From Gammaproteobacteria bacterium (GTDB taxonomy: Bacteria > Pseudomonadota > Gammaproteobacteria > CAKMZV01), in assembly GCA_965219665.1 (NCBI GenBank), contig CBDCOD010000024.1, positions 209,633-273,632 on the forward strand: a stretch of 64,000 bases of DNA, given 5' to 3'. Below, in pieces: positions 33,777 to 60,827 of the stretch. The notes beneath the pieces were generated by a model. The model was given only the letters and a program-made list of their open reading frames with translations, was not told where the DNA came from and ran no database searches. The translations under genes were made by a program, and so were the position numbers. Positions within the stretch are counted from its first letter, which is position 1. Each line of letters opens with the position of its first letter.

Positions 33777-33778
33777 AC

Positions 33779-42881: not shown

Positions 42882-43073
42882 GTGACAGTTACCGCTGCGG
42901 TAGCACAAGCTGCCAGCAGTGGTGGCGGTGGTGGCGGTGGCGACAGCAGCGGCGGCGGTGGCGGGGGTGGCTGTAGCTTACAGTCTGAATCAGGCGCAAT
43001 AGACTGGACGCTATGGTTGCTTGCTCTATTGAGTTTAGCTGCACTGCGTGGCTATCGCCGCAGGGTATCTTAG
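42882..43073 (+). other. orphan 3' cassette encoding only the C-terminal sorting-signal tail of the NHL/cadherin protein family
   Basis: 63 codons, MTVTAAVAQAASSGGGGGGGDSSGGGGGGGCSLQSESGAIDWTLWLLALLSLAALRGYRRRVS*. The last 40 residues are identical to the tails of array copies 1-3. It is followed by the same 210-bp spacer and has no upstream gene body. Confidence 0.5.
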
Positions 43074-43174
43074 ATGAAAGGGCAGAAATGCCGTTTTATG
43101 TGACACAATTGCCATTCATGCTCAAAAGCAGCCTGAATGGATGCAATGTTTGCTGCGACACGTTTTCCTAACTG

Positions 43175-43215
43175 TTCGCAGCGAATAGTATCGTATGGTT
43201 GTGTTACAATCCCCT
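43175..43215 (+). promoter_or_regulatory. putative sigma-70 extended -10 promoter (TGtTACAAT) repeated in each array spacer
   Basis: TGTTACAAT at 43202-43210, about 74 nt upstream of the copy-1 ATG. The same element is conserved at 48027-48035, 52814-52822 and 57636-57644 ahead of copies 2-4. The -35 element is weak. Confidence 0.3.
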
Positions 43216-43283
43216 TAATATATATATTTATAGAACAACGAATCCATTCATTTCATTCATATCAATAATCACACAGAACTATT

Positions 43284-46200
43284 ATGCATACGAACAATAC
43301 ACATAGCAATACACATAGCAGTACATTTAACAATACACTGTATTCCATCCAAAAACGGGTAGTTTTCTTGCTCTGCATAGTATCGGCATTGGTGTCGGCA
43401 TCGCTGTGGTCAATGACAGCAAGTGCAGCTGCGCCAGTTGCTTTAAGCCATATTTTGTCTGTACAAACCTACGCAGGGGGTGGGAATGGCGATGACAGCA
43501 CCTCCGATGGCGCCAGCACCAAAACCGCGCGGTTTAGTGGAGTTAGTGGGCTTAGAGTAGCACCGGATGGGCGCCTCTTTGTCGCGGACAGTGAGCGCTT
43601 ACGCGTGGTGAGCGCGGATGGCAGCACGGTATCCACCTACGCTGGTGGCGGCAGCGTGGATGTAGATAGCGCCAGCACCGCCAATATTCGTTTTCGCAGT
43701 CTCCAAGACGTAGCCATTCACCCCGATGGACGCGTGTTTGTTTTAGATGGAGGCTTCTCCTCTGGGAATCGCGTATATGTTATTAACCCAACTGGCAGCA
43801 CCGCCTCTGTTTATGCGGGCGGGGGACCAATTGGTGGCTTTGCTGGCAGTTTTGCAGATGGTGCCAGTACTACCACTGCGCGCTTTGACCGACCTTTGGG
43901 GATGGCGCTTCGCTCTGATGGACGGCTTTTCATTGCCGATACAGCCAACCATCGCATTCGCGTCATCAGCGCGGATGGCGCCACCGTTTCTACCTATGCA
44001 GGCAATGGCAATCCAGGATTGCTTGATGGCGATGCGGATGCGGCTGAGTTTAATGGCCCTGTCAGCCTGGCATTTGCTACCGATGGGCGCCTCTTTGTCG
44101 GCGATGGCAACAACCGCCGCATTCGGGTGATTAGTGCCGATGGCAATACGGTTTCCACCTACGCCGGTCGCGGTGCCACTGGCGAAACAGCATTAGGTTC
44201 ACCATTCCCGCCCGCTGATAGCATTGATTTTTTTGATGTTGCCTATATTGCTATTACCAACGATGGGCGCATTCTGGTCAGCGATGATGGCTCTTCTAAT
44301 ATTCGGGTTATCAGCGCGGATGGCAGCCGTGTTTCTGTGTATGCAGGCGTTAATGTTGCCGCCTCTGACGATATAAGACCAAGCTTTCCCTCTAGCCCCT
44401 TAAATGAAGGTCTTCCTGCTGCAGAGGCGGGTTTTAGAAACCCTAGGGGCATCGCTATTGACGCGACTGGGCGGGTATTTGTCGCCAATCGCGATTTTAA
44501 CTTAGTGAGCGTTATTGCCCCCAGTTTGGCAGTGGCAGATATCCCCCCTGCGCAATTAAGCGCTGCACAGCAAGTACGCGGAGCAAGCGTCTTCAGCGCT
44601 GGCGTGGTGCAATCCCTATTTAGCGATGCGGATGGGAGCACCTTAAGCTACAGCTTGGTCGAAACCAGTTCGGCGACGGCTGTATCCTTTGCCATTGATA
44701 GCGTCAGTGGCGCTATCACCTACCTTCAGCCCACAGAGGCGCTGGCTAATACGCAAACACTGGTGATTGCCGTCAGTGATGAGCAAGGCACAGCTACTTC
44801 CCGTCTGACGGTTATTTCTGAACCTTTGAGCAACTATCCGCCCCAGTTTGGTTTATCCACCAGTGCCCTCACGCGCGCAGAAGGGTTTGCAGACCCCATA
44901 ACCATTACCATCAATGACCCAGATGATGGGGATACGGACAGTATAGAGCAGGCGATTACATACAGCCTACGCATAGACCCTAATGACTTATTGGCGCCTT
45001 TTGCAACATTTGCGATTGACCCACAATCAGGCACAATCACCATTACCAGCATCAGCGGCGTAGGCGCGTTTGGCAATATAACCGTTCGGGTTATTGCTGA
45101 TGATGGCAGTAACAGCCATAGTGAGTCCGAACAAAGCTTTACCCTCACTGTAACCCAAGTGAATAACACCCCGCCTGTGGTAGCTCCAAGCCTGCGCACT
45201 GTGCGCACCTATGCAGGCAGCGGCGGTAACGATTTTGCAGATGGTAGCGCCCTGACAGCACAATTCAACACTCCAAACGGTATTGCTCGGGCAGCCGATG
45301 GACGCATCTTTGTTGCAGATACTTTCAACCATCGTATTCGCGTCATTAGTGCTGATGGTGCGACTGTTTCCACTTATGCAGGTGATGGCGTTGCGGCCTT
45401 TGCAGATGGCAGCACCAGCACAGCACGCTTTTCCCAACCTCAAGGCATTGCCGTGGCAGCCGATGGCCGCCTCTTTGTTGCAGATGAGTTCAATAACCGT
45501 ATTCGCGTCATTAGTGCCGATGGTGCAACTGTTTCCACTTATGCAGGTGATGGCGAAGCGGCCTTTGTAGATGGCAGCACCACCACGGCACGCTTTAGTT
45601 TTCCACGCGGTATTGCCGTGGCAGCCGATGGGCGCGTCTTTGTTGCAGATACTTTCAATAACCGTATTCGCGTCATTAGTGCCGATGGTGCTACCGTCTC
45701 TACTTATGCAGGCATTGGTGGCTTTGGCTTCGCCAATGGCAGCACCAGCACGGCACAATTTAGTTTACCATTCGGCGTTGCCGTGGCAGCCGATGGGCGC
45801 GTCTTTGTTGCAGATGCTGGCAATCAGCGCATTCGCGTCATTAGTGCCGATGGTGCGACTGTTTCCACTTATGCAGGTGATGGCGTTGAGAACTTTGCAG
45901 ATGGCAGCACCACCACCGCTCGCTTTGAAGAGCCAACCGATCTTGTAGTTGCCTCCGATGGTCGCGTCTTTGTTGCTGACACAAATAACAATCGGATTCG
46001 CGTGATTAGTGCCGATGGTGCCTCTGTCTCTACCTATGCAGGTAGTGGTGCAGCTGCCCAAACCAATGAGCCTCAAAAATCACAAACCGCTCTTGATATA
46101 GATTTAAGAGAACCGCGAAGAATGATTCTTGCGCCGGATGGACGCCTCTTTTTCACTGACTCAGGTAACCATCGTATTCGCGTGATTGAAGTCATTTCCT

Positions 46201-47894
46201 CAACTTCTGAAAACTTTGGCTCTGTTACCTTAGGTGCTGAATTTCAAGGGGCTGGAACGCGCGTTATTGGCGCACAAAACCTATTTTTTGATGCAGAAGC
46301 TAATGACTTAACCTTTAGCATTCTCTCTGGTAATGAGGACGGCTTATTTGCCATCGATGCAGCCAGTGGCAGGGTTACGCTGGCAGGCAGTTTAACCGAT
46401 AGACAAACAGGGATCAACACGCTGGTTATCCAGGCACAAGATCTTGCTGGCAGCGCCACCGTAACCCTTACCATCGTAGTGGAAGAGGTGAACGATCCTC
46501 CCACGTTCGCCCTGTCTACCAGCACATTGGAATTAGATGAAGATTTCGGCACTAATACCGATATTGTGGTAGTGAATCCCGATGATGGGGACGCTGCGAT
46601 TGAGCAAATACTGACTTATAGCGTGAGCACCAACAATGTTGGCTTTACCACACTGACTATCAATGCACAATCAGGGACACTTACCTTGACCAGTATAGCG
46701 GATGCTTTTGGTGAGGCAACTCTTACCATAACGGTGACTGATTCTTCTGCTACCAACAATGAGGCAACCCAAGTCCTTAGATTACGAGTACTCTCTGTGA
46801 ATGACCCGCCTGCCTTTTCCCTCTCTACGACCACACTGAGGCTCACTGAGGACTTTGCTCAAGCAATAACTGTATCGGTGGTGAACCCAAATGATGTTGA
46901 TGGTGATGGTGATGGCATGGAGCAAACTTTAACCTATAGCATATCACCAGTTAGTTTAGAGGTGGTTGGTATAAGCTTTGATGCCAATTCAGGTCAAGTA
47001 ATTCTCAATAGCGTTGCCGATGCCAATAGCATTAACCCGATTCTGTTTGAAATAACTGCGAATGATGGTGGCGCGGTCAATAATCTATTCTCGCAGTCAT
47101 TTACCCTTGAGATTGAGCCTGTGAATGACCCAGGGAGGAATGACCCGCCTAATGTTGTGCTGTCAACTGCTGTGCTCACGCTGGATGAAGATTTTGGCAG
47201 TGCTTCTATAACTGTGGTGAGAAGCGATGACGGGGATGACACCAATCAACCTTTGACTTATAGTATAAGCACCACTAATATCGGTTTTGCAATGATTTCT
47301 ATTGATAGCAACTCAGGCGCTATAACCCTGAGTAGTGTCGATAACCAATTTGGGCAAGCCACTTTGTTTGTGACGGTGGATGACTCTGCTCCTGAGGATA
47401 ATCTTTCAATCATACAGGTTGTTGTTAGGGCACGTGCTGTGAACGATGTGCCAACTTTTACCTTATCACGAACGGCGTTGACGCTGGATGAGGATTTTGG
47501 AACCAATACGGATATTAGCGTGGTGAGTCCAAATGATGGCGACAATGGCGATCAAGTGATTACTTATAGTATTAATCCTACTAATACCGAATTTGCTACT
47601 TTAGCAATTGATGCGCAAACAGGGGAGGTTACTATAACCAGTGTCGCTAATGGATTTGGGAGTGCAGTCATTACAGTGATAGCAGAAGATGATGGTGGCG
47701 GCGATACCAACCAGTCAACCCAAACCTTTATGCTGACTGTGGTTGATAGTGTGTCAGAAGCTGCCAGCAGTGGTGGCGGAGGTGGTGGAGGCTGTAGCTT
47801 ACAGTCTGAATCAGGCGCAATAGACTGGACGCTATGGTTGCTTGCTCTATTGAGTTTAGCTGCACTGCGTGGCTATCGCCGCAGGGTATCTTAG
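43284..47894 (+). CDS. giant secreted repeat protein, copy 1: signal peptide, NHL beta-propeller, cadherin/Ig-like domains, second NHL propeller, ~5 cadherin-like domains, C-terminal GlyGly-CTERM/MYXO-CTERM-like sorting tail
   Basis: 1536 aa. Twelve NHL-type blades (e.g. ...ARF..P.G.A..ADGRLFVADT.NHRIRVISADGATVSTYAG.G...). Repeated ~100-aa modules are bounded by VNDPP(A/T)F as in cadherin-like/RTX adhesin repeats. The tail is SSGGGGGGGCSLQSESGAIDWTLWLLALLSLAALRGYRRRVS. Confidence 0.85.
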   Translation: MHTNNTHSNTHSSTFNNTLYSIQKRVVFLLCIVSALVSASLWSMTASAAAPVALSHILSVQTYAGGGNGDDSTSDGASTKTARFSGVSGLRVAPDGRLFVADSERLRVVSADGSTVSTYAGGGSVDVDSASTANIRFRSLQDVAIHPDGRVFVLDGGFSSGNRVYVINPTGSTASVYAGGGPIGGFAGSFADGASTTTARFDRPLGMALRSDGRLFIADTANHRIRVISADGATVSTYAGNGNPGLLDGDADAAEFNGPVSLAFATDGRLFVGDGNNRRIRVISADGNTVSTYAGRGATGETALGSPFPPADSIDFFDVAYIAITNDGRILVSDDGSSNIRVISADGSRVSVYAGVNVAASDDIRPSFPSSPLNEGLPAAEAGFRNPRGIAIDATGRVFVANRDFNLVSVIAPSLAVADIPPAQLSAAQQVRGASVFSAGVVQSLFSDADGSTLSYSLVETSSATAVSFAIDSVSGAITYLQPTEALANTQTLVIAVSDEQGTATSRLTVISEPLSNYPPQFGLSTSALTRAEGFADPITITINDPDDGDTDSIEQAITYSLRIDPNDLLAPFATFAIDPQSGTITITSISGVGAFGNITVRVIADDGSNSHSESEQSFTLTVTQVNNTPPVVAPSLRTVRTYAGSGGNDFADGSALTAQFNTPNGIARAADGRIFVADTFNHRIRVISADGATVSTYAGDGVAAFADGSTSTARFSQPQGIAVAADGRLFVADEFNNRIRVISADGATVSTYAGDGEAAFVDGSTTTARFSFPRGIAVAADGRVFVADTFNNRIRVISADGATVSTYAGIGGFGFANGSTSTAQFSLPFGVAVAADGRVFVADAGNQRIRVISADGATVSTYAGDGVENFADGSTTTARFEEPTDLVVASDGRVFVADTNNNRIRVISADGASVSTYAGSGAAAQTNEPQKSQTALDIDLREPRRMILAPDGRLFFTDSGNHRIRVIEVISSTSENFGSVTLGAEFQGAGTRVIGAQNLFFDAEANDLTFSILSGNEDGLFAIDAASGRVTLAGSLTDRQTGINTLVIQAQDLAGSATVTLTIVVEEVNDPPTFALSTSTLELDEDFGTNTDIVVVNPDDGDAAIEQILTYSVSTNNVGFTTLTINAQSGTLTLTSIADAFGEATLTITVTDSSATNNEATQVLRLRVLSVNDPPAFSLSTTTLRLTEDFAQAITVSVVNPNDVDGDGDGMEQTLTYSISPVSLEVVGISFDANSGQVILNSVADANSINPILFEITANDGGAVNNLFSQSFTLEIEPVNDPGRNDPPNVVLSTAVLTLDEDFGSASITVVRSDDGDDTNQPLTYSISTTNIGFAMISIDSNSGAITLSSVDNQFGQATLFVTVDDSAPEDNLSIIQVVVRARAVNDVPTFTLSRTALTLDEDFGTNTDISVVSPNDGDNGDQVITYSINPTNTEFATLAIDAQTGEVTITSVANGFGSAVITVIAEDDGGGDTNQSTQTFMLTVVDSVSEAASSGGGGGGGCSLQSESGAIDWTLWLLALLSLAALRGYRRRVS

Positions 47895-48103
47895 ATGAAA
47901 AAGGCAGAAATGCCGTTTTATGTGACACAATTGCCATTCATGCTCAAAAGCGCCTGAATGGATGGCTGCAATGTTTGCTGCGACACGTTTTCCTAACTGT
48001 TCGCAGCCAATAGTATCGTATGGTTGTGTTACAATTCTCTTAATATATATATTTATAGAACAACGAATCCATTCATTCATATCAATAATCACACAGAACT
48101 ATT

Positions 48104-51100
48104 ATGCATAAGACCAATACACATAGCAATACACTGTATTCCATCCAAAAACGCTTAGTTTTCTTGCTCTGCATAGTATCGGCATTGGTGTCGGCATCGC
48201 TGTGGTCAATGACAGCAAGTGCAGCTGCGCCAGTTGCTTTAAGCCATATTTTGTCTGTACAAACCTACGCAGGGGGTGGGAATGGCCCAGCCAACACCTC
48301 CGATGGCAACAGCACCAAAACCGCGCGGTTTGATATACCCACTGGGCTTAGAGTAGCACCGGATGGGCGCCTTTTTGTCACGGACAGTGAGCGCTTACGC
48401 GTGGTGAGCGCGGATGGCAGCACGGTATCCACCTACGCTGGTGGCGGCATCGTGGATGTAGTAGATAGCGCCAGCACCGCCAATATTCGTTTTCGCAGAC
48501 TCCGAGACGTAGCCATTCACCCCGATGGCCGCGTGTTTGTTTTAGATGGAGGCTTCTCCTCTGGGCATCGCGTATATGTTATTGACCCAACTGGCAGCAC
48601 CGCCTCTGTCTATGCGGGCGGAGGACCAATTGGTAACTTTGCTGGCAGTTTTGCAGATGGTGGCAGCACTACCACTGCGCGCTTTAACCAACCTTTGGGG
48701 ATGGCGCTTCGCTCTGATGGACGGCTTTTCATTGCCGATACAGCCAACCATCGCATTCGCGTCATCAGCGCGGATGGCGCCACCGTTTCTACCTATGCAG
48801 GCAATGGCAATCCAGGATTGGTTGATGGCGATGCGGATGCGGCTGAGTTTAATGGCCCTGTCAGCCTGGCATTTGCTACCGATGGGCGCCTCTTTGTCGG
48901 CGATGGCAACAACCGCCGCATTCGGGTGATTAGTGCCGATGGCAATACGGTTTCCACCTACGCCGGTCGCGGCGCCACTGGCGAAACAGACCTAGAGTCA
49001 CAATTCCCGCCCGCTGATAGCATTGATTTTTTTGATGTTGCCTATATTGCTATTACCACCGATGGGCGCATTATAGTCAGCGATGATGGTTCTCATAATA
49101 TTCGGGTCATCAGCGCGGATGGCAGCCGTGTTTCTGTGTATGCAGGCGCTGATGGAGTCAGCTCTGGCAACATACGAACAAGCTTTCCCTTTAACCCCTT
49201 AAATGAAGGTCCTGCTGCAGAGGCAGGTTTTAGAACCCCTAGGGGCATCGCTATTGATGCGGCTGGGCGGGTATTTGTCGCCAATCGCGATTTTAGCTTA
49301 GTGAGCGTTATTGCCCCCAGTTTGGCAGTGGCAGATATCCTCCCTGCGCAATTAAGCGCTGCACAGCAAGTACGCGGAGCAAGCCTCTTCAGCGCTGGCG
49401 TGGTGCAATCCCTATTTAGCGATGCGGATGGGAGCACCTTAAGCTACAGCTTGGTCGAAACCAGTTCGGCGACGGCTATATCCTTTGCCATTGATAGTGT
49501 CAGTGGCGCTATCACCTACCTTCAGCCCACAGAGGCGCTGGCTAATACGCAAACACTGGTGATTGCCGCCAGTGATGAGCAAGGCACAGCTACTTCCCGT
49601 CTGACGGTTATTTCTGAACCTTTGAGCAACTACCCGCCCCAGTTTGGTTTATCCACCAGTGCCCTCACGCGCGCAGAAGGGTTTGCAGACCCCATAACCA
49701 TTACCATCAATGACCCAGATGATGGGGATACGGACGGTATAGAGCAGCCGATTACATACAGCCTGCGCATAGCCCCTAATGACTTATTGGCGCCTTTTGC
49801 AACATTTGCGATTGACCCACAATCAGGCACAATCACCATTACCAGTATCAGCGGCGCAGGCGCGTTTGGCAATATAACCGTTCGGGTTATTGCTGATGAT
49901 GGCAGTAACAGCCATAGTGAGTCCGAACATAGCTTTGCCCTCACTGTAACCCAAGTGAATAACAGCCCGCCTGTGGTAGCTCCAAGCCTGCGCATTGTGC
50001 GCACCTATGCAGGCAGCGGCGTTAGCGATTTTGCAGATGGTAGCGCCCTGACAGCACAATTCAACGCTCCACGCGGTATTGCCCGTGCAGCCGATGGCCG
50101 CCTCTTTGTTGCAGATGCTTCCAATGACCGCATCCGAGTAATCAGTGCCGATGGTGCGACTGTTTCCACTTATGCAGGTGATGGCGTTGAGAACTTTGCA
50201 GATGGCAGCACCAGCACCGCACGCTTTCGTTCTCCAAGCGGCGTTGCTCTGGCAGCCGATGGGCGCGTCTTTGTTGCAGATACGGATAACAATCGGATTC
50301 GCGTGATTAGTGCCGATGGTGCGACTGTTTCCACTTATGCAGGTGATGGCGTTGAGGGCTTTGCAGATGGCAGCACCAGCACGGTACGCTTTCGTTTTCC
50401 ACGTGGCGTTGCCTTGACAGCCGATGGGCGCCTCTTTGTTGCAGATACTTTCAATGACCGTATTCGCGTCATTAGTGCCGATGGTGCGACTGTTTCCACT
50501 TATGCAGGTGGTGGCGTTCCGGGCTTTGCAGATGGCAGCACCACCACCGCACGCTTTAATACGCCACGCGGCGTTGCCTTGGCAGCCGATGGGCGCGTCT
50601 TTGTTGCAGATGCTGGCAATCACCGCATTCGCGTCATTAGTGCCGATGGTGCGACTGTTTCCACTTATGCAGGTGATGGCGTTGAGAGCTTTGCAGATGG
50701 CAGCACGACCACCGCTCGCTTTGATGACCCAACCGATTTTGTAGTTGCCTCCGATGGTCGGCTGTTTGTTGCTGATACGGGTAACAGTCGGATTCGCGTG
50801 ATTAGTGCCGATGGTGCCTCTGTCTCTACCTATGCAGGTAGTGGTGCAGTTGCCCAAGCTAATGAGCATCAAGAATTACAAGCCGCTGTTGATATAGATA
50901 TAGGCGCTCCGCGAAGAATGACTCTTGCGCCGGATGGACGCCTCTTTTTCACTGACTCAGATAGTAATCGTATTCGCGTGATTGAAGACGTTTCCTCAAC
51001 TTCTGAAAACTTTGGCTCTGTTACCTTAGGCGCTGGATTTCAAGGGGCTGGAACGCGCGTTATTAGCGCACAAAACCTATTTTTTGATGCAGAAGGTAAT

Positions 51101-52681
51101 GACTTAACCTTCAGCATTCTCTCTGGTAATGAAGACGGCTTATTTGCCATCGATGCAGCCAGTGGCAGGGTTACGCTGGCAGGCAGTTTAACCGATAGAC
51201 AAACAGGGATCAACACGCTGGTTATCCAGGCACAAGATCTTGCTGGCAGCGCCACCGTAACCCTTACCATCGTAGTGGAAGAGGTGAACCAAGCTCCCAC
51301 GTTCGCCCTGTCTTCCAGCACTTTGGAATTAGATGAAGATTTCGGCACTAATACCGATATTGTGGTAGTGAATTCCGATGATGGGGATGCCGCGATTGAG
51401 CAAATACTGACTTATAGCGTGAGCACCAACAATGTCGGCTTTACCACACTGACTATCAATGCACAATCAGGGGCACTTACCTTGACCAGTATAGCGGATG
51501 CTTTTGGTGAGGCAACCCTTACCATAACGGTGAGTGATTCTTCTACTACCAACAGTGAGGCAACCCAAACCCTTAGATTACGAGTACTCCCCGTGAATGA
51601 CCCGCCTGCCTTTTCCCTCTCTACGACCACACTGAGGCTCACTGAGGACTTTGCTCAAGCAATAACTGTATCGGTGGTGAACCCAAATGATGGCGATGAT
51701 GATGGCATGGAGCAAACTTTAACCTATAGCATATCACCGGTTAGTTTAGAGGTGGTTGGTATAAGCTTTGATGCCAATTCAGGTCAAGTAATTCTCAATA
51801 GCGTTGCCGATGCCAATAGCATTAACCCGATTCTGTTTGAAATAACTGCGAATGATGGTGGCGCGGTCAATAATCTATTCTCGCAGTCATTTACCCTTGA
51901 GATTCAGCCTGTGGATGACCCGGGGAATGACCCGCCTAATGTTGTGCTGTCAACTGCTGTGCTCACGCTGGATGAAGATTTTGGCAGTGCTTCTATAACT
52001 GTGGTGAGTAGCGATGACGGGGATGGCACCAATCAACCTTTGACTTATAGTATAAGCACCACTAATATCGGTTTTGCAACGATTTCTATTGATAGCAACT
52101 CAGGCGCTATAACCCTGAGTAGTGTCGATAACCAATTTGGGCAAGCCACTTTGTTTGTGACGGTGGATGACTCTGCTCCTGAGGATAATCTTTCAATCAT
52201 ACAGGTTGTTGTTGAGGCACGTTCTGTGAACGATGTGCCAACTTTTACCTTATCACGAACGGCGCTGACGCTGGATGAGAATTTTGGAAGCAATACGGAT
52301 ATTAGCGTGGTGAGTCCAAATGATGGCGACAATGGCGATCAAGTGATTACTTATAGTATTAATCCTACTAATACTGGATTTGCTACTTTAGCAATTGATG
52401 CGCAAACAGGGGAGGTTACTATAACCAGTGTCGCTAATGGATTTGGGAGTGCAGTCATTACAGTGATAGCAGAAGATGATGGTGGCGGCGATACCAACCA
52501 GTCAACCCAAACCTTTATGCTGACTGTGGTTGATAGTGTGTCAGAAGCTGCCAGCAGTGGTGGCGGAGGTGGTGGAGGCTGTAGCTTACAGTCTGAATCA
52601 GGCGCAATAGACTGGACGCTATGGTTGCTTGCTCTATTGAGTTTAGCTGCACTGCGTGGCTATCGCCGCAGGGTATCTTAG
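48104..52681 (+). CDS. giant secreted NHL-propeller/cadherin-like repeat protein with C-terminal sorting tail, copy 2
   Basis: 1525 aa, collinear with copy 1 and estimated by eye at about 90-95% identity. It has a shorter N-terminal repeat stretch and scattered substitutions, mostly in propeller blades. Confidence 0.85.
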   Translation: MHKTNTHSNTLYSIQKRLVFLLCIVSALVSASLWSMTASAAAPVALSHILSVQTYAGGGNGPANTSDGNSTKTARFDIPTGLRVAPDGRLFVTDSERLRVVSADGSTVSTYAGGGIVDVVDSASTANIRFRRLRDVAIHPDGRVFVLDGGFSSGHRVYVIDPTGSTASVYAGGGPIGNFAGSFADGGSTTTARFNQPLGMALRSDGRLFIADTANHRIRVISADGATVSTYAGNGNPGLVDGDADAAEFNGPVSLAFATDGRLFVGDGNNRRIRVISADGNTVSTYAGRGATGETDLESQFPPADSIDFFDVAYIAITTDGRIIVSDDGSHNIRVISADGSRVSVYAGADGVSSGNIRTSFPFNPLNEGPAAEAGFRTPRGIAIDAAGRVFVANRDFSLVSVIAPSLAVADILPAQLSAAQQVRGASLFSAGVVQSLFSDADGSTLSYSLVETSSATAISFAIDSVSGAITYLQPTEALANTQTLVIAASDEQGTATSRLTVISEPLSNYPPQFGLSTSALTRAEGFADPITITINDPDDGDTDGIEQPITYSLRIAPNDLLAPFATFAIDPQSGTITITSISGAGAFGNITVRVIADDGSNSHSESEHSFALTVTQVNNSPPVVAPSLRIVRTYAGSGVSDFADGSALTAQFNAPRGIARAADGRLFVADASNDRIRVISADGATVSTYAGDGVENFADGSTSTARFRSPSGVALAADGRVFVADTDNNRIRVISADGATVSTYAGDGVEGFADGSTSTVRFRFPRGVALTADGRLFVADTFNDRIRVISADGATVSTYAGGGVPGFADGSTTTARFNTPRGVALAADGRVFVADAGNHRIRVISADGATVSTYAGDGVESFADGSTTTARFDDPTDFVVASDGRLFVADTGNSRIRVISADGASVSTYAGSGAVAQANEHQELQAAVDIDIGAPRRMTLAPDGRLFFTDSDSNRIRVIEDVSSTSENFGSVTLGAGFQGAGTRVISAQNLFFDAEGNDLTFSILSGNEDGLFAIDAASGRVTLAGSLTDRQTGINTLVIQAQDLAGSATVTLTIVVEEVNQAPTFALSSSTLELDEDFGTNTDIVVVNSDDGDAAIEQILTYSVSTNNVGFTTLTINAQSGALTLTSIADAFGEATLTITVSDSSTTNSEATQTLRLRVLPVNDPPAFSLSTTTLRLTEDFAQAITVSVVNPNDGDDDGMEQTLTYSISPVSLEVVGISFDANSGQVILNSVADANSINPILFEITANDGGAVNNLFSQSFTLEIQPVDDPGNDPPNVVLSTAVLTLDEDFGSASITVVSSDDGDGTNQPLTYSISTTNIGFATISIDSNSGAITLSSVDNQFGQATLFVTVDDSAPEDNLSIIQVVVEARSVNDVPTFTLSRTALTLDENFGSNTDISVVSPNDGDNGDQVITYSINPTNTGFATLAIDAQTGEVTITSVANGFGSAVITVIAEDDGGGDTNQSTQTFMLTVVDSVSEAASSGGGGGGGCSLQSESGAIDWTLWLLALLSLAALRGYRRRVS

Positions 52682-52887: not shown

Positions 52888-55800
52888 ATGCATACGATCA
52901 ATACACATAGCAGTACACATAGCAATACATTTAACAATACACTGTATTCCATCCAAAAACGCTTAGTTTTCTTGTTCTGCATAGTATCGGCATTGGTGTC
53001 GGCATCGCTGTGGTCAATGACAGCAAGTGCAGCTGCGCCAGTTGCTTTAAGCCATATTTTGTCTGTACACACCTACGCAGGGGGTGGGACTGGCCCTGAC
53101 AGCACCTCCGATGGCAACAGCACCCAAACCGCGCGTTTTGATCAACCCAATGGGCTTAGAGTAGCACCGGATGGGCGCCTCTTTATCACGGACCGTGGGC
53201 GCTTACGCGTGGTGAGCGCGGATGGCAGCACGGTATCCACCTACGCTGGTGGCGGTAGTGTGGATGTAGATAGCGCCAGCACCTCCAATATTCGTTTTCG
53301 CGAACTCCAAGACGTAGCTATTCACCCCGATGGCCGCGTGTTTGTTTTAGATGGAGGGTCGCGCTCTGGGCATCGCGTGTATGTTATTGACCCAACTGGC
53401 AGCACCGCCTCTGTCTATGCGGGCGGGGGACCAATTGGTAACTTTGCTGGCAGTTTTGCAGATGGTGCCAGCACTACCACTGCGCGCTTTAACCAACCTT
53501 TGGGGATGGTGCTTCACTCTGATGGACGGCTTTTCATTGCCGACACAGACAACCATCGCATTCGCGTCATCAGCGCGGATGGCGCCACCGTTTCTACCTA
53601 TGCAGGCAATGGCAATCCAGGATTGGCTGATGGCGATGCGGATGCGGCTGAGTTTAACGGTCCTGTCAGCCTGGCATTTGCTACCGATGGGCGCCTCTTT
53701 GTCGGCGATGGCAACAACCGCCGCATTCGGGTGATTAGTGCCGATGGCAATACGGTTTCCACCTACGCCGGTCGCGGTGCCACTGGCGAAACAGCATTAG
53801 GTTTACCATTCCCGCCCGCTGATAGCATCGATTTTTTTGATGTTGCCTATATTGCCATTACCACCGATGGGCGCATTCTAGTCAGCGATGATGGCTCTCA
53901 TAATATTCGGGTCATCAGCGCAAATGGCAGCCGTATTTCTGTGTATGCAGGCGCTAATGGAGTCACCCCTGGCAACATAAGAGGCTTTGCCCCTAACCCC
54001 TTAAATGAAGGTCTTCCTGCTGTAGACGCAGGTTTTGGAAGCCCTAGGGGCATCGCTATTGACGCGACTAGGCGGGTATTTGTCGCCAATCGCAATTTTA
54101 ACTTAGTGAGCGTTATTGCCCCCAGTTTGGCAGTGGCAGATATCCCCCCTGCGCAATTAAGCGCAGCACAGCAAGTACGCGGATCAAGCGTCTTCAGCGC
54201 TGGCGTGGTGCAATCTCTATTTAGCGATGCGGATGGGAGCACTTTAAGCTACAGCTTGGTCGAAACCAGTTCGGCGACGGCTGTATCCTTTGCCATTGAT
54301 AGCGTCAGTGGCGCTATCACCTACCTTCAGCCCACAGAGGCGCTAGCTAATACGCAAACACTGGTGATTGCCGCCAGTGATGAGCAAGGCACAGCTACTT
54401 CCCGTCTGACGGTTATTTCTGAACCTTTGAGCAACTATCCGCCCCAGTTTGGTTTATCCACCAGTGCCCTCACGCGCGCAGAAGGGTTTGCAGACCCCAT
54501 AACCATTACCATCAATGACCCAGATGATGGGGATACGGACGGTATAGAGCAGCCGATCACATACAGCCTGCGCATAGACCCTAATGACTTATTGGCGCCT
54601 TTTGCAACATTTGCGATTGACCCACAATCAGGCACAATCACCATTACCAGTATCAGCGGCGCAGGCGCGTTTGGCAATATAACCGTTCGGGTTATTGCTG
54701 ATGATGGCAGTAACAGCCGTAGTGAGTCCGAACAAAGCTTTACCCTCACTGTAACCCAAGTGAATAACAGCCCGCCTGTGGTAGCTCCAAGCCTGCGCAT
54801 TGTGCGCACCTATGCAGGCAGCGGCGTTAACGATTTTGCAGATGGTAGCGCCCTGACAGCACAATTCAACGCTCCAAGCGGTATTGCTCGGGCAGCCGAT
54901 GGACGGCTTTTCATTGCCGATACAGACAACCATCGTATTCGCGTCATTAGTGCCGATGGTGCGACTGTTTCCACTTATGCAGGTGATGGCGTTGAGGACT
55001 TTGCAGATGGCAGCACCAGCACGGCACGCTTTAGTTCTCCACGTGGCGTTGCCTTGGCAGCCGATGGCCGCCTCTTTGTTGCAGATGAGTTCAATCACCG
55101 TATTCGCGTCATTAGTGCCGATGGTGCGACTGTTTCCACTTATGCAGGTGATGACGCTGCGGCTTTTGCAGATGGCAGCACCAGCACGGCACGCTTTAGT
55201 TCTCCACGTGGCGTTGCCTTGGCAGCCGATGGACGCCTCTTTGTTGCAGATACTTTCAATGACCGTATTCGCGTCATTAGTGCCGATGGTGCGACTGTTT
55301 CTACTTATGCAGGCAGTGGTTTTGGCTTCGCCAATGGCAGCACCAGCACCGCCCGCTTTAATACGCCACGCGGCGTTGCCGTGGCAGCCGATGGGCGCGT
55401 CTTTGTTGCAGATGCTGGCAATCAGCGCATTCGCGTCATTAGTGCCGATGGTGCGACTGTTTCCACTTATGCAGGTGATGGCGTTCAGAGCTTTGCAGAT
55501 GGCAGCACGACCACCGCTCGGTTTGATAGCCCAACCGATTTTGTAGTTACCTCCGATGGTCGCGTCTTTGTTACTGATACGGGTAATCATCGTATTCGCG
55601 TGATTAGTGCCGATGGTGCCTCTGTCTCTACCTATGCAGGTAGTGGTGCAGTTGCCCAAACTAATGCGCCTCAACTAGAATCACAAACCGCTCTTGATAT
55701 AGATTTAAGATTTCCGCAAAGAATGACTCTTGCGCCGGATGGACGCCTCTTTTTCACTGAGACAAATATTCATCGTATTCGCGTGATTGAAGTCGTTTCC

Positions 55801-57504
55801 TCAGCTTCTGAAAACTTTGGCTCTGTTACCTTAGGCGCTGAATTTCAAGGGGCTGGAACGCACGTTATTGGCGCACAAAACCTATTTTTTGATGCAGAAG
55901 GTAATGACTTAACCTTCAGCATTCTCTCTGGTAATGAGGACGGCTTTTTTGCCATCGATGCAGCCAGTGGCAGGGTTACGCTGGCAGGCAGTTTAACCGA
56001 TAGACAAACAGGGATCAACACGCTGGTTATCCAGGCACAAGATCTTGCTGGCAGCGCCACCGTAACCCTTACCATCGTAGTGGAAGAGGTGAACGATCCT
56101 CCCACGTTCGCCCTGTCTACCAGCACATTGGAATTAGATGAAGATTTCGGCACTAATACCGATATTGTGGTAGTGAATCCCGATGATGGGGACGCTGCGA
56201 TTGAGCAAATACTGACTTATAGCGTGAGCACCAACAATGTTGGCTTTACCACACTGACTATCAATGCACAATCAGGGACACTTACCTTGACCAGTATAGC
56301 GGATGCTTTTGGTGAGGCAACTCTTACCATAACGGTGACTGATTCTTCTGCTACCAACAATGAGGCAACCCAAGTCCTTAGATTACGAGTACTCTCTGTG
56401 AATGACCCGCCTGCCTTTTCCCTCTCTACGACCACACTGAGGCTCACTGAGGACTTTGCTCAAGCAATAACTGTATCGGTGGTGAACCCAAATGATGTTG
56501 ATGGTGATGGTGATGGCATGGAGCAAACTTTAACCTATAGCATATCACCAGTTAGTTTAGAGGTGGTTGGTATAAGCTTTGATGCCAATTCAGGTCAAGT
56601 AATTCTCAATAGCGTTGCCGATGCCAATAGCATTAACCCGATTCTGTTTGAAATAACTGCGAATGATGGTGGCGCGGTCAATAATCTATTCTCGCAGTCA
56701 TTTACCCTTGAGATTGAGCCTGTGGATGACCCAGGGAGGAATGACCCGCCTAATGTTGTGCTGTCAACTGCTGTGCTCACGCTGGATGAAGATTTTGGCA
56801 GTGCTTCTATAACTGTGGTGAGAAGCGATGACGGGGATGGCACCAATCAACCTTTGACTTATAGTATAAGCACCACTAATATCGGTTTTGCAATGATTTC
56901 TATTGATAGCAACTCAGGCGCTATAACCCTGAGTAGTGTCGATAACCAATTTGGGCAAGCCACTTTGTTTGTGACGGTGGATGACTCTGCTCCTGAGGAT
57001 AATCTTTCAATCATACAGGTTGTTGTTGAGGCACGTGCTGTGAACGATGTGCCAACTTTTACCTTATCACGAACGGCGTTGACGCTGGATGAGGATTTTG
57101 GAACCAATACGGATATTAGCGTGGTGAGTCCAAATGATGGCGACAATGGCGATCAAGTGATTACTTATAGTATTAATCCTACTAATACCGAATTTGCTAC
57201 TTTAGCAATTGATGCGCAAACAGGGGAGGTTACTATAACCAGTGTCGCTAATGGATTTGGGAGTGCAGTCATTACAGTGATAGCAGAAGATGATGGTGGC
57301 GGCGATACCAACCAGTCAACCCAAACCTTTATGCTGACTGTGCTGGATGTGGTTGATAGTGTGTCACAGCCTGCCAGCAGTGGTGGCGGGGGTGGTGGCG
57401 GCTGTAGCTTACAGTCTGAATCAGGCGCAATAGACTGGACGCTATGGTTGCTTGCTCTATTGAGTTTAGCTGCACTGCGTGGCTATCGCCGCAGGGTATC
57501 TTAG
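52888..57504 (+). CDS. giant secreted NHL-propeller/cadherin-like repeat protein with C-terminal sorting tail, copy 3
   Basis: 1538 aa with the same architecture and tail as copies 1-2. Confidence 0.85.
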   Translation: MHTINTHSSTHSNTFNNTLYSIQKRLVFLFCIVSALVSASLWSMTASAAAPVALSHILSVHTYAGGGTGPDSTSDGNSTQTARFDQPNGLRVAPDGRLFITDRGRLRVVSADGSTVSTYAGGGSVDVDSASTSNIRFRELQDVAIHPDGRVFVLDGGSRSGHRVYVIDPTGSTASVYAGGGPIGNFAGSFADGASTTTARFNQPLGMVLHSDGRLFIADTDNHRIRVISADGATVSTYAGNGNPGLADGDADAAEFNGPVSLAFATDGRLFVGDGNNRRIRVISADGNTVSTYAGRGATGETALGLPFPPADSIDFFDVAYIAITTDGRILVSDDGSHNIRVISANGSRISVYAGANGVTPGNIRGFAPNPLNEGLPAVDAGFGSPRGIAIDATRRVFVANRNFNLVSVIAPSLAVADIPPAQLSAAQQVRGSSVFSAGVVQSLFSDADGSTLSYSLVETSSATAVSFAIDSVSGAITYLQPTEALANTQTLVIAASDEQGTATSRLTVISEPLSNYPPQFGLSTSALTRAEGFADPITITINDPDDGDTDGIEQPITYSLRIDPNDLLAPFATFAIDPQSGTITITSISGAGAFGNITVRVIADDGSNSRSESEQSFTLTVTQVNNSPPVVAPSLRIVRTYAGSGVNDFADGSALTAQFNAPSGIARAADGRLFIADTDNHRIRVISADGATVSTYAGDGVEDFADGSTSTARFSSPRGVALAADGRLFVADEFNHRIRVISADGATVSTYAGDDAAAFADGSTSTARFSSPRGVALAADGRLFVADTFNDRIRVISADGATVSTYAGSGFGFANGSTSTARFNTPRGVAVAADGRVFVADAGNQRIRVISADGATVSTYAGDGVQSFADGSTTTARFDSPTDFVVTSDGRVFVTDTGNHRIRVISADGASVSTYAGSGAVAQTNAPQLESQTALDIDLRFPQRMTLAPDGRLFFTETNIHRIRVIEVVSSASENFGSVTLGAEFQGAGTHVIGAQNLFFDAEGNDLTFSILSGNEDGFFAIDAASGRVTLAGSLTDRQTGINTLVIQAQDLAGSATVTLTIVVEEVNDPPTFALSTSTLELDEDFGTNTDIVVVNPDDGDAAIEQILTYSVSTNNVGFTTLTINAQSGTLTLTSIADAFGEATLTITVTDSSATNNEATQVLRLRVLSVNDPPAFSLSTTTLRLTEDFAQAITVSVVNPNDVDGDGDGMEQTLTYSISPVSLEVVGISFDANSGQVILNSVADANSINPILFEITANDGGAVNNLFSQSFTLEIEPVDDPGRNDPPNVVLSTAVLTLDEDFGSASITVVRSDDGDGTNQPLTYSISTTNIGFAMISIDSNSGAITLSSVDNQFGQATLFVTVDDSAPEDNLSIIQVVVEARAVNDVPTFTLSRTALTLDEDFGTNTDISVVSPNDGDNGDQVITYSINPTNTEFATLAIDAQTGEVTITSVANGFGSAVITVIAEDDGGGDTNQSTQTFMLTVLDVVDSVSQPASSGGGGGGGCSLQSESGAIDWTLWLLALLSLAALRGYRRRVS

Positions 57505-57715: not shown

Positions 57716-60674
57716 TGCATACGATCAATATACACATAGCAGTACATTTAACAATACACTGTATTCCATCCAAAAACGCTTAGTTTTGTTGTTCTGCATC
57801 GTATCGGCATTGGTGTCGGCATCGCTGTGGTCAATGACAGCAAGTGCAGCTGCGCCAGTGGCTTTAAGCCATAGTGCGTCCGAACATAGCTTTGCCCTCA
57901 CTGTAACCCAAGTGAATAACAGCCCGCCTGTGGTAGCTCCAAGCCTGCGCATTGTGCGCACCTATGCAGGCAGCGGCGTTAACGATTTTGCAGATGGTAG
58001 CGCCCTGACAGCACAATTCAACGCTCCAAGCGGTATTGCTCGGGCAGCCGATGGACGCCTCTTTGTTGCAGATACTTTCAATCACCGCATCCGAGTAATC
58101 AGTGCCGATGGTGCGACGGTTTCCACTTATGCAGGTGATGGCGTTAACGGGCTTTGCAGATGGCAGCACCAGCACGGCACGCTTTAGTGATCAACCTCAA
58201 GGCGTTGCCTTGGCAGCCGATGGACGCCTCTTTGTTGCAGATGAGAGCCAATCACCGTATTCGCGTGATTAGTGCCGATGGTGCGACTGTTTCCACTTAT
58301 GCAGGTAATGGCGTTCGCGGCTTTTGCAGATGGCAGCACCAGCACGGCACGCTTTCGTGGGTCCAGTCGGCGTTGCCGTGGCAGCCGATGGACGCCTCTT
58401 TGTTGCAGATACTTTCAATAGACCGTATTCGCGTCATTAGTGCCGATGGTGCTACCGTCTCTACTTATGCAGGCACTGGTTTTTTTGGCTTTGCCAATGG
58501 CGAGCGCCAGCACCGCTCGCTTTGGTTCTGCCTCAACTGGCGTTGCCGTGGCAGCCGATGGACGCGTCTTTGTTGCAGATACGGGTCAATAACGTCGGAT
58601 TCGCGTCATTAGTGCCGATGGTGCGACGGTTTCTACTTATGCAGGTGATGGCTTTGCGGGCATTTGCAGATGGCAGCACCACCACCGCACGCTTTGACGA
58701 ACCTCGAGGCGGTATGGCCGTGGCAGCCGATGGTCGCGTCTTTGTTGCTGATGAGGTCAATCAATCGGATTCGCGTGATTAGTGCCGATGGTGCCTTTGT
58801 CTCTACCTATGCAGGTAGTGGTACAGCTACCCAAACCAATGAGCCTCAAGCATTACAAGCCGCTCTTGATATAGATTTAAGCGCAACCGCGAAGAATGAC
58901 GCTTGCGCCGGATGGACGCCTCTTTTTCACTGACTCAGGTAACCATCGTATTCGCGTGATTGAAGTCATTTCCTCAACTTCTGAAAACTTTGGCTCTGTT
59001 AGCTTAGGCGCTGGACTTCAAGGGGCTGGAACGCACGTTATTGGCGCACAAAACCTATTTTTTGATGCAGAAGGTAGTGACTTAAGCTTCAGCATTCTCT
59101 CTGGTAATGAGGACGGCTTATTTGCCATCGATGCAGCCAGTGGCAGGGTTACGCTGGCAGGCAGTTTAACCGATACACGAACAGGGATCAACACGCTGGT
59201 TATCCAGGCAGAAGATCTTGCTGGCAGCGCCACCGTAACCCTTACCATCGTAGTGGAAGAGGTGAACGATCCTCCCACGTTCGCCCTGTCTTCCAGCACT
59301 TTGGAATTAGATGAAGATTTCGGCACTAATACCGATATTGTGGTAGTGAATCCCGATGATGGGGATGCCGCGATTGAGCAAATACTGACTTATAGCGTGA
59401 GCACCAACAATGTCGGCTTTACCACTCTGACTATCAATGCACAATCAGGGACACTTACCCTGACCAGTATAGCGGATGCTTTTGGTGAGGCAACTCTTAC
59501 CATAACGGTGACTGATTCTTCTGCTACCAACAATGAGGCAACCCAAACCCTTAGATTACGAGTACTCCCCGTGAATGACCCGCCTGCCTTTTCCCTCTCT
59601 ACGACCACCCTGAGGCTCGATGAGGACTTTGCTCAAGCAATAACTGTATCGGTGGTGAACCCAAATGATGGTGATGATGGCATGGAGCAAACTTTAACCT
59701 ATAGCATATCACCGGTTAGTTTAGGGGTGGTTGGTATAAGCTTTGATGCCAATTCAGGTCAAGTAATTCTCAATAGCGTTGCCGATGAAAATAGCATTAA
59801 CCCGATTCTGTTTGAAATAACTGCGAATGATGGTGGCGCGGTCAATAATCTATTCTCGCAGTCATTTACCCTTGAGATTGAGCCTGTGGATGACCCGGGG
59901 AATGACCCGCCTAATGTTGTGCTGTCAACTGCTGTGCTCACGCTGGATGAAGATTTTGGCAGTGCTTCTATAACTGTGGTGAGTAGCGATGACGGGGATG
60001 GCACCAATCAACCTTTGACTTATAGTATAAGCACCACTAATATCGGTTTTGCAACGATTTCTATTGATAGCAACTCAGGCGCTATAACCCTGAGTAGTGT
60101 CGATAACCAATTTGGGCAAGCCGCTTTGTTTGTGACGGTGGATGACTCTGCTCCTGAGGATAATCTTTCAATCATACAGGTTGTTGTTAGGGCACGTGCT
60201 GTGAACGATGTGCCAACTTTTACCTTATCACGAACGGCGCTGACACTGAATGAGGATTTTGGAAGCAATACGGATATTAGCGTGGTGAGTCCAAATGATG
60301 GCGACAATGGCGATCAAGTGATTACTTATCGTATTAATCCTACTAATACCGAATTTGCTACTTTAGCAATTGATGCGCAAACAGGGGAGGTTACTATAAC
60401 CAGTGTCGCTAATGGATTTGGGAGTGCAGTCATTACAGTGATAGCAGAAGATGATGGTGGCGGCGATACCAACCAGTCAACCCAAACCTTTATGCTGACT
60501 GTGGTTGATAGTGTGTCAGAAGCTGCCAGCAGTGGTGGCGGGGGTGGTGGCTGTAGCTTACAGTCCGCAACGAACCACCCTATAGACACTACACTCTGGT
60601 GGCTCCTGTTATTAAGCCTTGCGCTACTAACAGTGCGCGCTTATACAACGCGCCGCCCTCAAAAAAACCTATAG
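57716..60674 (+). pseudogene. degraded copy 4 of the NHL/cadherin repeat-protein gene (internal ~1.7-kb deletion, multiple frameshifts in second propeller, variant tail)
   Basis: Same upstream spacer and ATG context. The N-terminal repeat has a 2-nt indel. The signal peptide joins directly to the residue-~610 region (SASEHSFALTVTQVNNSPPVV). Reading frames break repeatedly between 58100 and 58900 (ORFs 57786..58187, 58154..58612, 58522..58782, 58664..58933). The ORF is intact from 58896 to the tail SSGGGGGGCSLQSATNHPIDTTLWWLLLLSLALLTVRAYTTRRPQKNL*. Confidence 0.75.
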
Positions 60675-60697
60675 CATAATTGAACATCAAATCCATA

Positions 60698-60790: not shown

Positions 60791-60827
60791 AATTCCTTAC
60801 GAACGTAATACGAACCTAATACTATAA

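Follow-up and report, generated by a model that had tools for sequence, protein, structure and literature searches.

The tandem array and its C-terminal tails

The window, meaning here the whole 64-kb stretch of DNA that was analysed, contains three intact client genes together with a pseudogene and an orphan tail, all on the forward strand. Client copy 1 (43284..47894, 1536 aa) combines a signal peptide, two NHL beta-propeller blocks, cadherin-like repeats, and a JDVT-CTERM-type tail, with Pfam matches to NHL (1.8e-61) and Cadherin (3.9e-18). Its putative Sec signal peptide, MHTNN...QKRVVFLLCIVSALVSASLWSMTASA/AAP (43284..43427), was read from the translation and displays a basic n-region (KR) along with a hydrophobic core and an A-S-A site; the same reading finds this region in copies 2 and 3 as well as in the pseudogene of copy 4. 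Copies 2 (48104..52681, 1525 aa) and 3 (52888..57504, 1538 aa) follow as 4.8-kb repeat units. Copy 4, mapped by tblastn to 57732..60674, is a broken member of a size class of ~985 aa and is 77% identical to P0050. The tblastn mapping puts the frameshifts that break it around 58140-58890, leaving 58896..60674 as the longest intact ORF. The tail-bearing secreted NHL/cadherin-repeat proteins are probably adhesins.

An orphan 3' cassette without a gene body (42882..43073) carries the same tail allele, A, as copies 1 to 3. What it preserves is the final ~60 codons of a gene from the ~2240-aa class; the C-terminus (...VTVTAAVAQAASS...) matches P0001, and a comparable orphan cassette (P0253) was found in another assembly. 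Spacers of ~210 nt follow the orphan cassette and copies 1 to 3 (43074-43283, 47895-48103, 52682-52887, and 57505-~57731). DNA alignment revealed that tail and spacer are nearly identical in four copies, with divergence only after copy 4; the spacer and tail allele A are parts of one repeat unit. That the orphan and copies 1 to 3 have identical tails and spacers is the result of duplication or gene conversion of this 4.8-kb unit. A scan of the conserved spacer for promoters and terminators returned nothing exceeding the shuffled background.

In each of the five tails in the window, a Gly-run and a single Cys precede a short spacer, after which come a Leu-rich helix and a basic end, just as an earlier note on this DNA had described for all copies and the orphan. 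Allele A occupies 42945-43073 in the orphan cassette (Cys codon 42972-42974), 47766-47894 in copy 1 (Cys codon 47793-47795), 52553-52681 in copy 2 (Cys codon 52580-52582), and 57376-57504 in copy 3 (Cys codon 57403-57405). The shared C-terminal end of ORFs 43284..47894, 48104..52681, and 52888..57504 and of the orphan 42882..43073 is SSGGGGGGGCSLQSESGAIDWTLWLLALLSLAALRGYRRRVS, with the stop codon directly after it. At the end of the fourth ORF (58896..60674), SSGGGGGGCSLQSATNHPIDTTLWWLLLLSLALLTVRAYTTRRPQKNL precedes the stop codon; this tail of copy 4, allele B, lies at 60528-60674, with its Cys codon at 60552-60554 and its Asp codon at 60585-60587.

In the translation of copy 1, the Gly-run/Cys motif (47766-47807) is succeeded by the spacer ESGAI (47808-47822), a conserved Asp codon (47823-47825), the hydrophobic stretch WTLWLLALLSLAAL (47826-47867), and the basic end RGYRRRVS (47868-47891), after which comes the stop codon. 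Allele A thus pairs WTLWLLALLSLAAL with RGYRRRVS, and allele B pairs the Leu-rich segment TTLWWLLLLSLALLTV with the basic cluster RAYTTRRPQKNL; the Gly-run of the copy-4 tail comprises six Gly residues, not seven. Every tail allele has exactly one Cys. The conserved Asp lies 10 residues after the Cys in alleles A and C and 11 in allele B, and the gap between CSLQS and Asp is only 5-6 residues, which corrects the spacer of 8-11 residues given previously. The residue after Asp is Trp in alleles A and C and Thr in allele B, in place of the Asp-Pro of JDVT-CTERM. The PEP motif was absent from all tails inspected.

Comparison of the tail with known signal families

NF033191, the NCBIfam JDVT-CTERM model with a curated cut-off of 27 bits, matched the full-length copy 1 protein at 33.7 bits (residues 1499-1534). 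Isolated tails scored 36.9 (allele A), 37.0 (allele B), and 33.9 bits (allele C), all above the cut-off, so that the earlier note's proposal of a three-part sorting signal at the C-terminus, with an invariant Cys, was borne out at 33.7-37 bits. The 48-aa tail matched the JDVT-CTERM HMM with E = 2.4e-9, and because two shuffled versions and the reversed tail found no match, chance or composition does not explain the tail.

The earlier note had also pointed to the MYXO-CTERM and GlyGly-CTERM models. TIGR03901 (MYXO-CTERM, cut-off 20 bits) was borderline: isolated tail A reached 20.0 bits, allele C 15.9, and the full protein 15.3, while tail B had no match; the JDVT-CTERM score exceeds the MYXO-CTERM score by 14-17 bits. 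Neither GlyGly-CTERM (TIGR03501) nor PEP-CTERM (TIGR02595) matched the tail, even at E <= 10. The suggestion that the tail has the layout of exosortase and rhombosortase targets therefore holds in that it is a sorting signal related to MYXO-CTERM, but the family is JDVT-CTERM.

HMM probing of tail A located the residues on which the NF033191 score depends. Changing Cys to Ser lowered it from 36.9 to 21.0 bits (-15.9), under the cut-off, and changing Asp to Ala lowered it to 27.2 bits (-9.7). Disruption of the helix left 15.3 bits (-21.6), and removal of the Gly-run cost 7.7 bits. Restoring Pro in place of Trp after Asp added only 2.3 bits.

Judged from its sequence, the tail is a predicted true C-terminal sorting signal of an already known class, JDVT-CTERM, the sister of MYXO-CTERM. 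A wholly new sorting system, raised earlier as a possibility, is unnecessary to account for the data, because a curated model already recognises the tail.

Tail alleles and selection

The allele B tail of copy 4 recurs unchanged on 12 other database proteins and scores 37.0 bits with NF033191. This rules out decay of the tail; it is a distinct allele, not the degraded version it had been taken for, and degradation in copy 4 concerns the gene's N-terminal half.

Compared over the Asp and 15 helix codons, the alleles differ by 9-10 synonymous changes and 2-5 replacements. The Gly-run, Cys-Ser, Asp, and T-L-W-L-L are kept across alleles A, B, and C and the tail type of the related array L018, and these kept positions coincide with those carrying the JDVT-CTERM HMM score. 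Because synonymous changes outnumber replacements between alleles, the tail peptide is under selection, and the conservation among alleles A, B, and C reflects selection on the signal itself. Gene conversion was considered as the sole cause of tail conservation; this account holds for the orphan and copies 1 to 3, where the DNA is almost identical, and fails when alleles A, B, and C and the tail type of L018 are compared with one another, where the differences are mostly synonymous.

Related tails and the host

A profile of these tails retrieved 44 proteins from 1.84 billion representatives, and NF033191 matched 38 of the 40 newly returned proteins that were scanned. Most of these matching proteins are unrelated in body, the exceptions being family members of this clade and fragments; the unrelated bearers include choice-of-anchor D proteins, a 'myxosortase-dependent M36 peptidase', S8 and M4 peptidases, an amylase, and a cytochrome c. 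The retrieved tails share a common register of a Gly-run, Cys, Asp at +10 (29/38), and then P-T-L-W-L-L. Pro follows Asp in 29 of the 38, and Trp was found there only in the NHL/cadherin clade and one doubtful case.

The tail was present on 64 of the best 120 homologues, up to seven of which apparently come from one 46-kb contig; P0043 and P0063 are listed on a contig as long as the one that holds the window (279,358 bp). Within this lineage, every protein whose tail scored highly is an NHL/cadherin paralogue or a fragment of one; the tail-profile search saw the tail there on one paralogous family only. Since one paralogous family bears it, the independence of the tail from the protein body is not evident within this genome. 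Dozens of tandem NHL/cadherin paralogues bear the tail, compared with the single client typical of JDVT-CTERM.

A degenerate DNA pattern for this lineage's tail gave 0 matches in JGI metagenomes. Tail-alignment scans of GTDB representative genomes matched 46 and 7 stretches, none of which was confirmed, and the species is seemingly absent from that set. A plasmid search for the canonical JDVT locus returned only choice-of-anchor D genes, none with an annotated MrtJ gene nearby. The neighbours of the host's GyrB are Gammaproteobacteria, and the host is a deep-branching gammaproteobacterium.

Search for the processing enzyme

With the tail family being JDVT-CTERM, the enzyme to be expected would be a CPBP/Rce1-like protease, not a rhombosortase or exosortase; specifically, the assignment predicts a glutamic intramembrane protease of roughly 140 aa, MrtJ or another myxosortase. 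The earlier view that the sorting enzyme is not encoded in the window stands, and it is the enzyme class sought that changes, from rhombosortase or exosortase to the CPBP/Rce1-like myxosortase family.

No rhomboid-like or exosortase-like ORF occurs in the 64-kb window, in agreement with the earlier note, and the same applies to proteases of the CPBP/MrtJ type. A six-frame search of the window with two MrtJ seeds found no MrtJ/CPBP homologue, an HMM of 78 MrtJ sequences reached at best 8.4 bits over the window compared with 136 bits for the control, and no ORF there carries EExxxR...HxxxN. The only window ORFs with at least three predicted TM segments are NuoN, a zinc ABC permease, PgsA, and an EamA transporter. 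The related arrays L018 and L019 (39 kb) contained only further family members and no protease. An MrtJ-profile search of 5.8 billion proteins returned 82 matches, none on a contig whose length belongs to this lineage; this is a weak negative, since the method needs shared 5-residue words and can miss a divergent enzyme.

On JGI metagenome contigs, a small CPBP ORF adjoins the canonical tail in 4/4 cases having flanking sequence, and both CPBP ORFs scanned passed the MrtJ model NF033192 (95.1 and 85 bits, cut-off 75). A bona fide MrtJ, P0364, scoring 100 bits, is unlinked and sits among housekeeping genes, with no tail within 10 kb on either side (L020).

Proposed pathway

JDVT-CTERM/MrtJ and four Cys-containing signals have been described (Haft 2023, bioRxiv 10.1101/2023.06.07.544157). 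As known so far, in silico only, JDVT-CTERM/MrtJ is a rare cassette of two genes that serves a single client, typically one per genome, the MrtJ gene being adjacent in 16/17 cases (bioRxiv 10.1101/2023.06.07.544157). Cleavage has been established experimentally only for MrtX and MYXO-CTERM in Myxococcus; MrtX cleaves MYXO-CTERM in a Cys-dependent manner and is active in E. coli (PMC11980579).

In the reading that we consider quite probable, the tail would be a Cys-containing, myxosortase-dependent sorting signal, closest to JDVT-CTERM, carried by secreted NHL/cadherin-repeat proteins whose family has been amplified in tandem. The N-terminal signal peptide, which is seen in the sequence, would route the protein through Sec, and the Leu-rich helix would then retain it in the inner membrane, the basic end facing the cytoplasm. 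Following the MYXO-CTERM model, the Cys after the Gly-run would be modified, probably with a lipid. The earlier note had placed lipid modification after cleavage; the published model of the Cys-containing class has Cys modification precede it (PMC11980579). A CPBP/Rce1-like protease encoded outside the window, by homology MrtJ or another myxosortase, would cut just after the Cys, freeing the helix and basic end and leaving a mature C-terminus expected to be ...GGGGGGGC. Surface display would follow, probably via the type II secretion system.

Likeness to JDVT-CTERM extends to the HMM pass, the Gly-run, the single invariant Cys, D-x-T-L-W-L-L at +10, the basic C-terminus, a Pseudomonadota host, and secreted clients with N-terminal signal peptides. 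The differences are Asp-Trp or Asp-Thr here against a near-invariant Asp-Pro, dozens of tandem paralogous clients against the usual one per genome, and clients that no MrtJ gene adjoins, whereas MrtJ is adjacent in 16/17 published cases and 4/4 metagenome loci. Several observations count against the preferred reading: the window, 39 kb of related arrays, and the MrtJ-profile search all failed to yield a protease for this lineage; Pro is replaced by Trp or Thr; none of the dozens of clients has an adjacent protease; and the tail occurs on one paralogous family only in this lineage.

The predicted pathway also resembles CAAX processing by eukaryotic and archaeal Rce1/MmRce1, in the CPBP PF02517 superfamily and in the cut just after a lipid-modified Cys close to the C-terminus. 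The CAAX box, however, is a four-residue, cytosolic element without a TM helix and is prenylated by known transferases.

Alternative explanations

A housekeeping system in the style of MYXO-CTERM, in which one unlinked MrtX/C/P/Z-like myxosortase serves many clients as in Myxococcota, appears rather unlikely. It differs from the explanation preferred above only in the enzyme subfamily. MYXO-CTERM (TIGR03901; MrtX/MrtC/MrtP) is likewise tripartite with an invariant Cys, and many clients per genome without an adjacent protease is its pattern; the 20.0 bits on isolated tail A reach the cut-off of 20. Its Cys-dependent CPBP cleavage is followed by type II secretion and surface display (PMC11980579). 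Also in its favour, a bona fide MrtJ can likewise be unlinked (P0364, 100 bits, L020). The score is borderline, however, falling to 15.3 bits in the full protein with allele B unmatched and JDVT-CTERM 14-17 bits higher, and the single Cys and conserved Asp sit in the JDVT register. The tails have no second Cys or GCGC motif, and they place in the helix a charged Asp that MYXO-CTERM is without. Moreover, the host is a gammaproteobacterium, not a member of Myxococcota, and its clients are all paralogues of one family instead of many unrelated proteins.

There is similarly a small chance that this clade uncoupled the JDVT-type signal from MrtJ entirely and that its Asp-Trp/Asp-Thr tails, on dozens of tandem adhesin paralogues and on orphan cassettes, are served by another, unrecognised enzyme or by a myxosortase too divergent for current models; the arrays, in which the tail-plus-spacer joints are identical, would then be a recombination system that varies surface adhesins.

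Less credible is a plain C-terminal TM anchor in the inner membrane without cleavage or Cys modification, its likeness to a signal being inherited and no longer used. The loss of the Pro of Asp-Pro and the restriction of the tail to one protein family agree with such an anchor, as does the failure to find a processing enzyme in the window, the 39 kb of related arrays, or the MrtJ-profile database search. Yet the HMM-critical positions are kept across alleles despite 9-10 synonymous changes in 16 codons, and mere anchoring requires no invariant Cys and no Asp within the helix. A hydrophobic stretch of 14-17 residues is also short for stable anchoring, and large adhesin-like ectodomains at a Gram-negative inner membrane would have no access to the outside.

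The GlyGly-CTERM signal is processed by rhombosortase, a rhomboid serine protease that attaches glycerophosphoethanolamine. A signal of the GlyGly-CTERM or PEP-CTERM type, processed by a rhombosortase or exosortase whose gene lies elsewhere, is very improbable: its three-part layout and the Gly residues ahead of the helix give the tail a superficial likeness to GlyGly-CTERM, which shares Gram-negative hosts and surface display, but that signal has no invariant Cys, neither model matched at E <= 10, there is no PEP motif, the score hinges on Cys and an Asp 10 residues later (JDVT/MYXO features), and the tail profile retrieves JDVT-CTERM tails and not GlyGly-CTERM tails.

Implications

For annotation, these genes are best named JDVT-CTERM domain proteins, and the hunt for the enzyme is best aimed at CPBP/Rce1-like proteins of about 140-230 aa and not at rhombosortases or exosortases. 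The signal known from a single-client cassette now appears on a massively amplified tandem adhesin family with a changed motif (Asp-Pro to Asp-Trp or Asp-Thr) and no linked protease. If the cognate enzyme were found, alleles A, B, and C would constitute natural substrate variants for myxosortase recognition, and the lineage would show that JDVT systems can evolve from serving one client to serving many, as MYXO-CTERM does.

Array organization and C-terminal tails

A 1536-aa ORF (43284..47894, plus strand) has its 3′ end at 47728–47894, and its C-terminal 42 residues read SSGGGGGGGCSLQSESGAIDWTLWLLALLSLAALRGYRRRVS. This tail also terminates the two following ORFs (48104..52681 and 52888..57504) and, upstream, an orphan ORF of 63 codons (42882..43073), and the ORF at 58896..60674 ends in a fourth tail, SSGGGGGGCSLQSATNHPIDTTLWWLLLLSLALLTVRAYTTRRPQKNL; the Gly-run/Cys tail described in the earlier note on the copies and the orphan was thus recovered. 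The array is built of 4.8-kb tandem units. The tail and its ~210-nt 3′ spacer are nearly identical DNA in the orphan and copies 1–3 (tail allele A), and copy 4 (allele B) departs right after GGCTGTAGCTTACAGTC, the codons of G-C-S-L-Q-S.

Each array protein begins with what is predicted to be a typical signal peptide (…QKRVVFLLCIVSALVSASLWSMTASA/AAP), followed by a body made of NHL beta-propeller and cadherin-like repeats. The NHL blocks are tandem repeats at the DNA level, with a 165-nt period and 60–90% identity (43900–46070, 48700–50870, and 53500–55670). Copy 4 belongs to a shorter family class (~985 aa) and carries frameshifts in its N-terminal half at about 58140–58890; between 57732 and 58896 the coding sequence of this half switches among three reading frames, each of which still shows NHL repeats. 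The split is either genuine, making copy 4 a pseudogene, or results from misassembly of the 165-nt repeats. The orphan (42882–43073) is the C-terminus of another size class (~2240 aa, ending ...VTVTAAVAQAASS-Gly-run), followed by a normal spacer and then copy 1. A near-identical orphan ORF of 89 aa (P0253) is found in another assembly, and recombination among family members may repeatedly generate such 3′ remnants or use them as substrates.

The G+C content of the array (0.50–0.53) exceeds that of the flanking housekeeping genes (0.42–0.47). Two partial copies of a gene with a Lin1244/Lin1753-like N-terminal domain (PF14297, 41.6 bits) flank the orphan and the four genes, one upstream at 42733–42879 (MKKDTFYFPHDYNAASDEKIEKLLFELGNEGYGIYWRIIEMLYQNN) and one downstream at about 60690–60800 (...SDEKIEELLFKLGNEGCGVYWRIVEMLYQNN). 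The borders look like a ~100-nt duplication, as though a phage-derived gene had received the array by insertion or had been the site of its recombination. The adjoining region (60675–64000) has no long ORFs. It contains a phage Mu F-like head-morphogenesis fragment (62169–62546, minus strand; PF04233, 78.7 bits) along with further short, disrupted ORFs, and seems to be what is left of a decayed prophage. Elsewhere, an NYN-domain ORF (predicted RNase, 33141–33776) overlaps the start of smpB (33767–34261) by 10 nt, which has no bearing on the tail.

Family members and host

The tail was present on 64 of copy 1's 120 closest homologues, in size classes of about 975, 1160, 1530, and 2240 aa. Many of these homologues come from contigs of equal length, for example, seven from contig(s) of 46,422 bp and five from contig(s) of 279,358 bp, the size of the window's own. 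GyrB reached 100% identity only within its own cluster; two ~2-Mb contigs followed at 75% and 72%, and nothing else exceeded 68%. All named neighbours are in the Gammaproteobacteria; the host is therefore a deep-branching gammaproteobacterium.

Like tandem NHL/cadherin arrays occur in a related organism, in L019 (1–22025; ENA ERZ25072490, an 82,407-bp contig) and L018. These arrays include one gene of 5109 aa, with frameshifted cadherin-repeat fragments upstream of it, and another of at least 3605 aa, and their tails are of allele C (…CSLQP[AT]TGASDWTLWLLLLLSLLALRLRPRYL) or read CSLHHTATTDWVLWLLVLLSVVALRRRRYS.

Assignment of the tail to JDVT-CTERM

An NCBIfam scan matched the tail to NF033191 (JDVT-CTERM). 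Against a curated cut-off of 27 bits, the full protein scored 33.7 bits, and tails A and B taken by themselves scored 36.9 and 37.0 bits, respectively. The tail is assigned to this family and not to the GlyGly-CTERM, rhombosortase, or exosortase relatives that the earlier note had named; the GlyGly-CTERM and PEP-CTERM models returned nothing for it at E ≤ 10. The MYXO-CTERM likeness survived only at the borderline, since TIGR03901 scored 20.0 bits on isolated tail A (cut-off 20), 15.3 on the full protein, and had no match to tail B.

Mutants of tail A (wild type, 36.9 bits) were scored against the JDVT-CTERM HMM. The score fell to 21.0 bits with Cys→Ser, 27.2 with Asp→Ala, 29.2 with the Gly-run replaced, and 15.3 with the helix disrupted; RRR→AAA gave 35.8, and changing the Trp after Asp to Pro gave 39.2. 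Two shuffles and the reversed tail had no match. The match therefore depends on the Cys, the Asp, and the helix, which are the family's defining features, and not on composition. Judged by these profile scores, the tail is of JDVT-CTERM type, a predicted Cys-containing tripartite sorting signal, as the earlier note had read it, and one already recognised by an existing curated model.

The same signal on unrelated proteins

A profile of the tail alleles, searched against 1.84 billion representative proteins, returned 44 proteins at E ≤ 0.001. The best six were the lineage's own NHL/cadherin family and its fragments, and NF033191 matched 38 of the 40 newly returned proteins that were scanned. 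The bodies bearing the tail included choice-of-anchor D proteins (15), ‘myxosortase-dependent M36 metallopeptidases’ (5), S8 and M4 peptidases, an amylase, and cytochromes c. Their common register is a Gly-run, Cys-[Ser/Thr], eight variable residues, and Asp at +10 (29/38), then P-T-L-W-L-L. The window's tail keeps this register exactly, save that Pro is replaced by Trp (alleles A and C) or Thr (allele B, whose spacer is one residue longer); Asp-Trp was found only in the NHL/cadherin clade. The tail is homologous to the signal borne by these unrelated proteins.

Codons were compared between alleles over the Asp and the next 15 helix positions. Allele A differed from B by nine synonymous and five replacement changes, from C (taken from L019) by 9–10 and two, and from the L018 type by nine and four. 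The positions unchanged over the alleles (G-G-C-S-L, D, T-L-W, L, L-L-S-L, L) are largely those dominating the general JDVT consensus. The tail is thus under selection and not merely homogenised. The earlier note's reading of the copy-4 tail as degraded was rejected, as allele B recurs unaltered on 12 other database proteins.

Search for the cognate protease

Four Cys-containing tripartite signals have been tied to CPBP/Rce1-like glutamic intramembrane proteases, and MrtJ (NF033192), the JDVT-CTERM partner, was found beside its client 16 times out of 17, a genome typically having one client (Haft, bioRxiv 10.1101/2023.06.07.544157). For MYXO-CTERM, the prediction has been borne out experimentally: TraA requires MrtX both to be cut at its C-terminus and to be anchored at the surface, and this cleavage is Cys-dependent and also proceeds in E. 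coli (PMC11980579). The working model there runs from Sec export through Cys lipidation by an unknown enzyme and cleavage distal to the Cys to export by a type II secretion system (PMC11980579).

In JGI metagenome contigs, DPTLWLLVLL was found at 14 loci, eight of which have real tails. A small CPBP ORF adjoins the client in all four loci with usable flanks (L006, L007, L013, and L016), and the two such ORFs that were scanned passed NF033192 at 95.1 and 85 bits (cut-off 75). The client–MrtJ linkage is thereby reproduced in independent metagenome data.

Among the window's ORFs, three or more transmembrane segments were predicted only for NuoN, a zinc ABC permease, PgsA, and an EamA-type transporter. 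Dedicated searches matter here because MrtJ, at ~140–165 aa, could be overlooked among small ORFs. The EExxxR…HxxxN pattern was absent from all six-frame fragments of the window, two MrtJ seeds gave only noise against it (tblastn and phmmer), and a 78-sequence MrtJ HMM reached at most 8.4 bits (E = 0.2; control, 136 bits). The cognate protease gene is not in the window, as the earlier note had held.

The host species was not found among GTDB representative genomes or in JGI metagenomes, and the L018 (17 kb) and L019 (22 kb) arrays held further family members only and no protease. An MrtJ-profile search of 5.8 billion proteins returned 82 proteins, none on a contig of a length belonging to the lineage, a weak negative given that such a search relies on shared five-residue words. 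One bona fide MrtJ (P0364; NF033192, 100 bits), at 10001–10423 of L020 (ENA ERZ6863697, a 158,751-bp contig), lies among housekeeping genes (hemB, an OmpA-like gene, purH, a fis-like gene, and dusB), with no JDVT-type tail within 10 kb on either side. An unlinked enzyme thus has precedent, in departure from the usual adjacency.

The array differs from the described JDVT-CTERM system in carrying Asp-Trp or Asp-Thr instead of Asp-Pro, in having a large tandem family of clients instead of a single gene, and in lacking an adjacent protease, where MrtJ is usually the neighbour.
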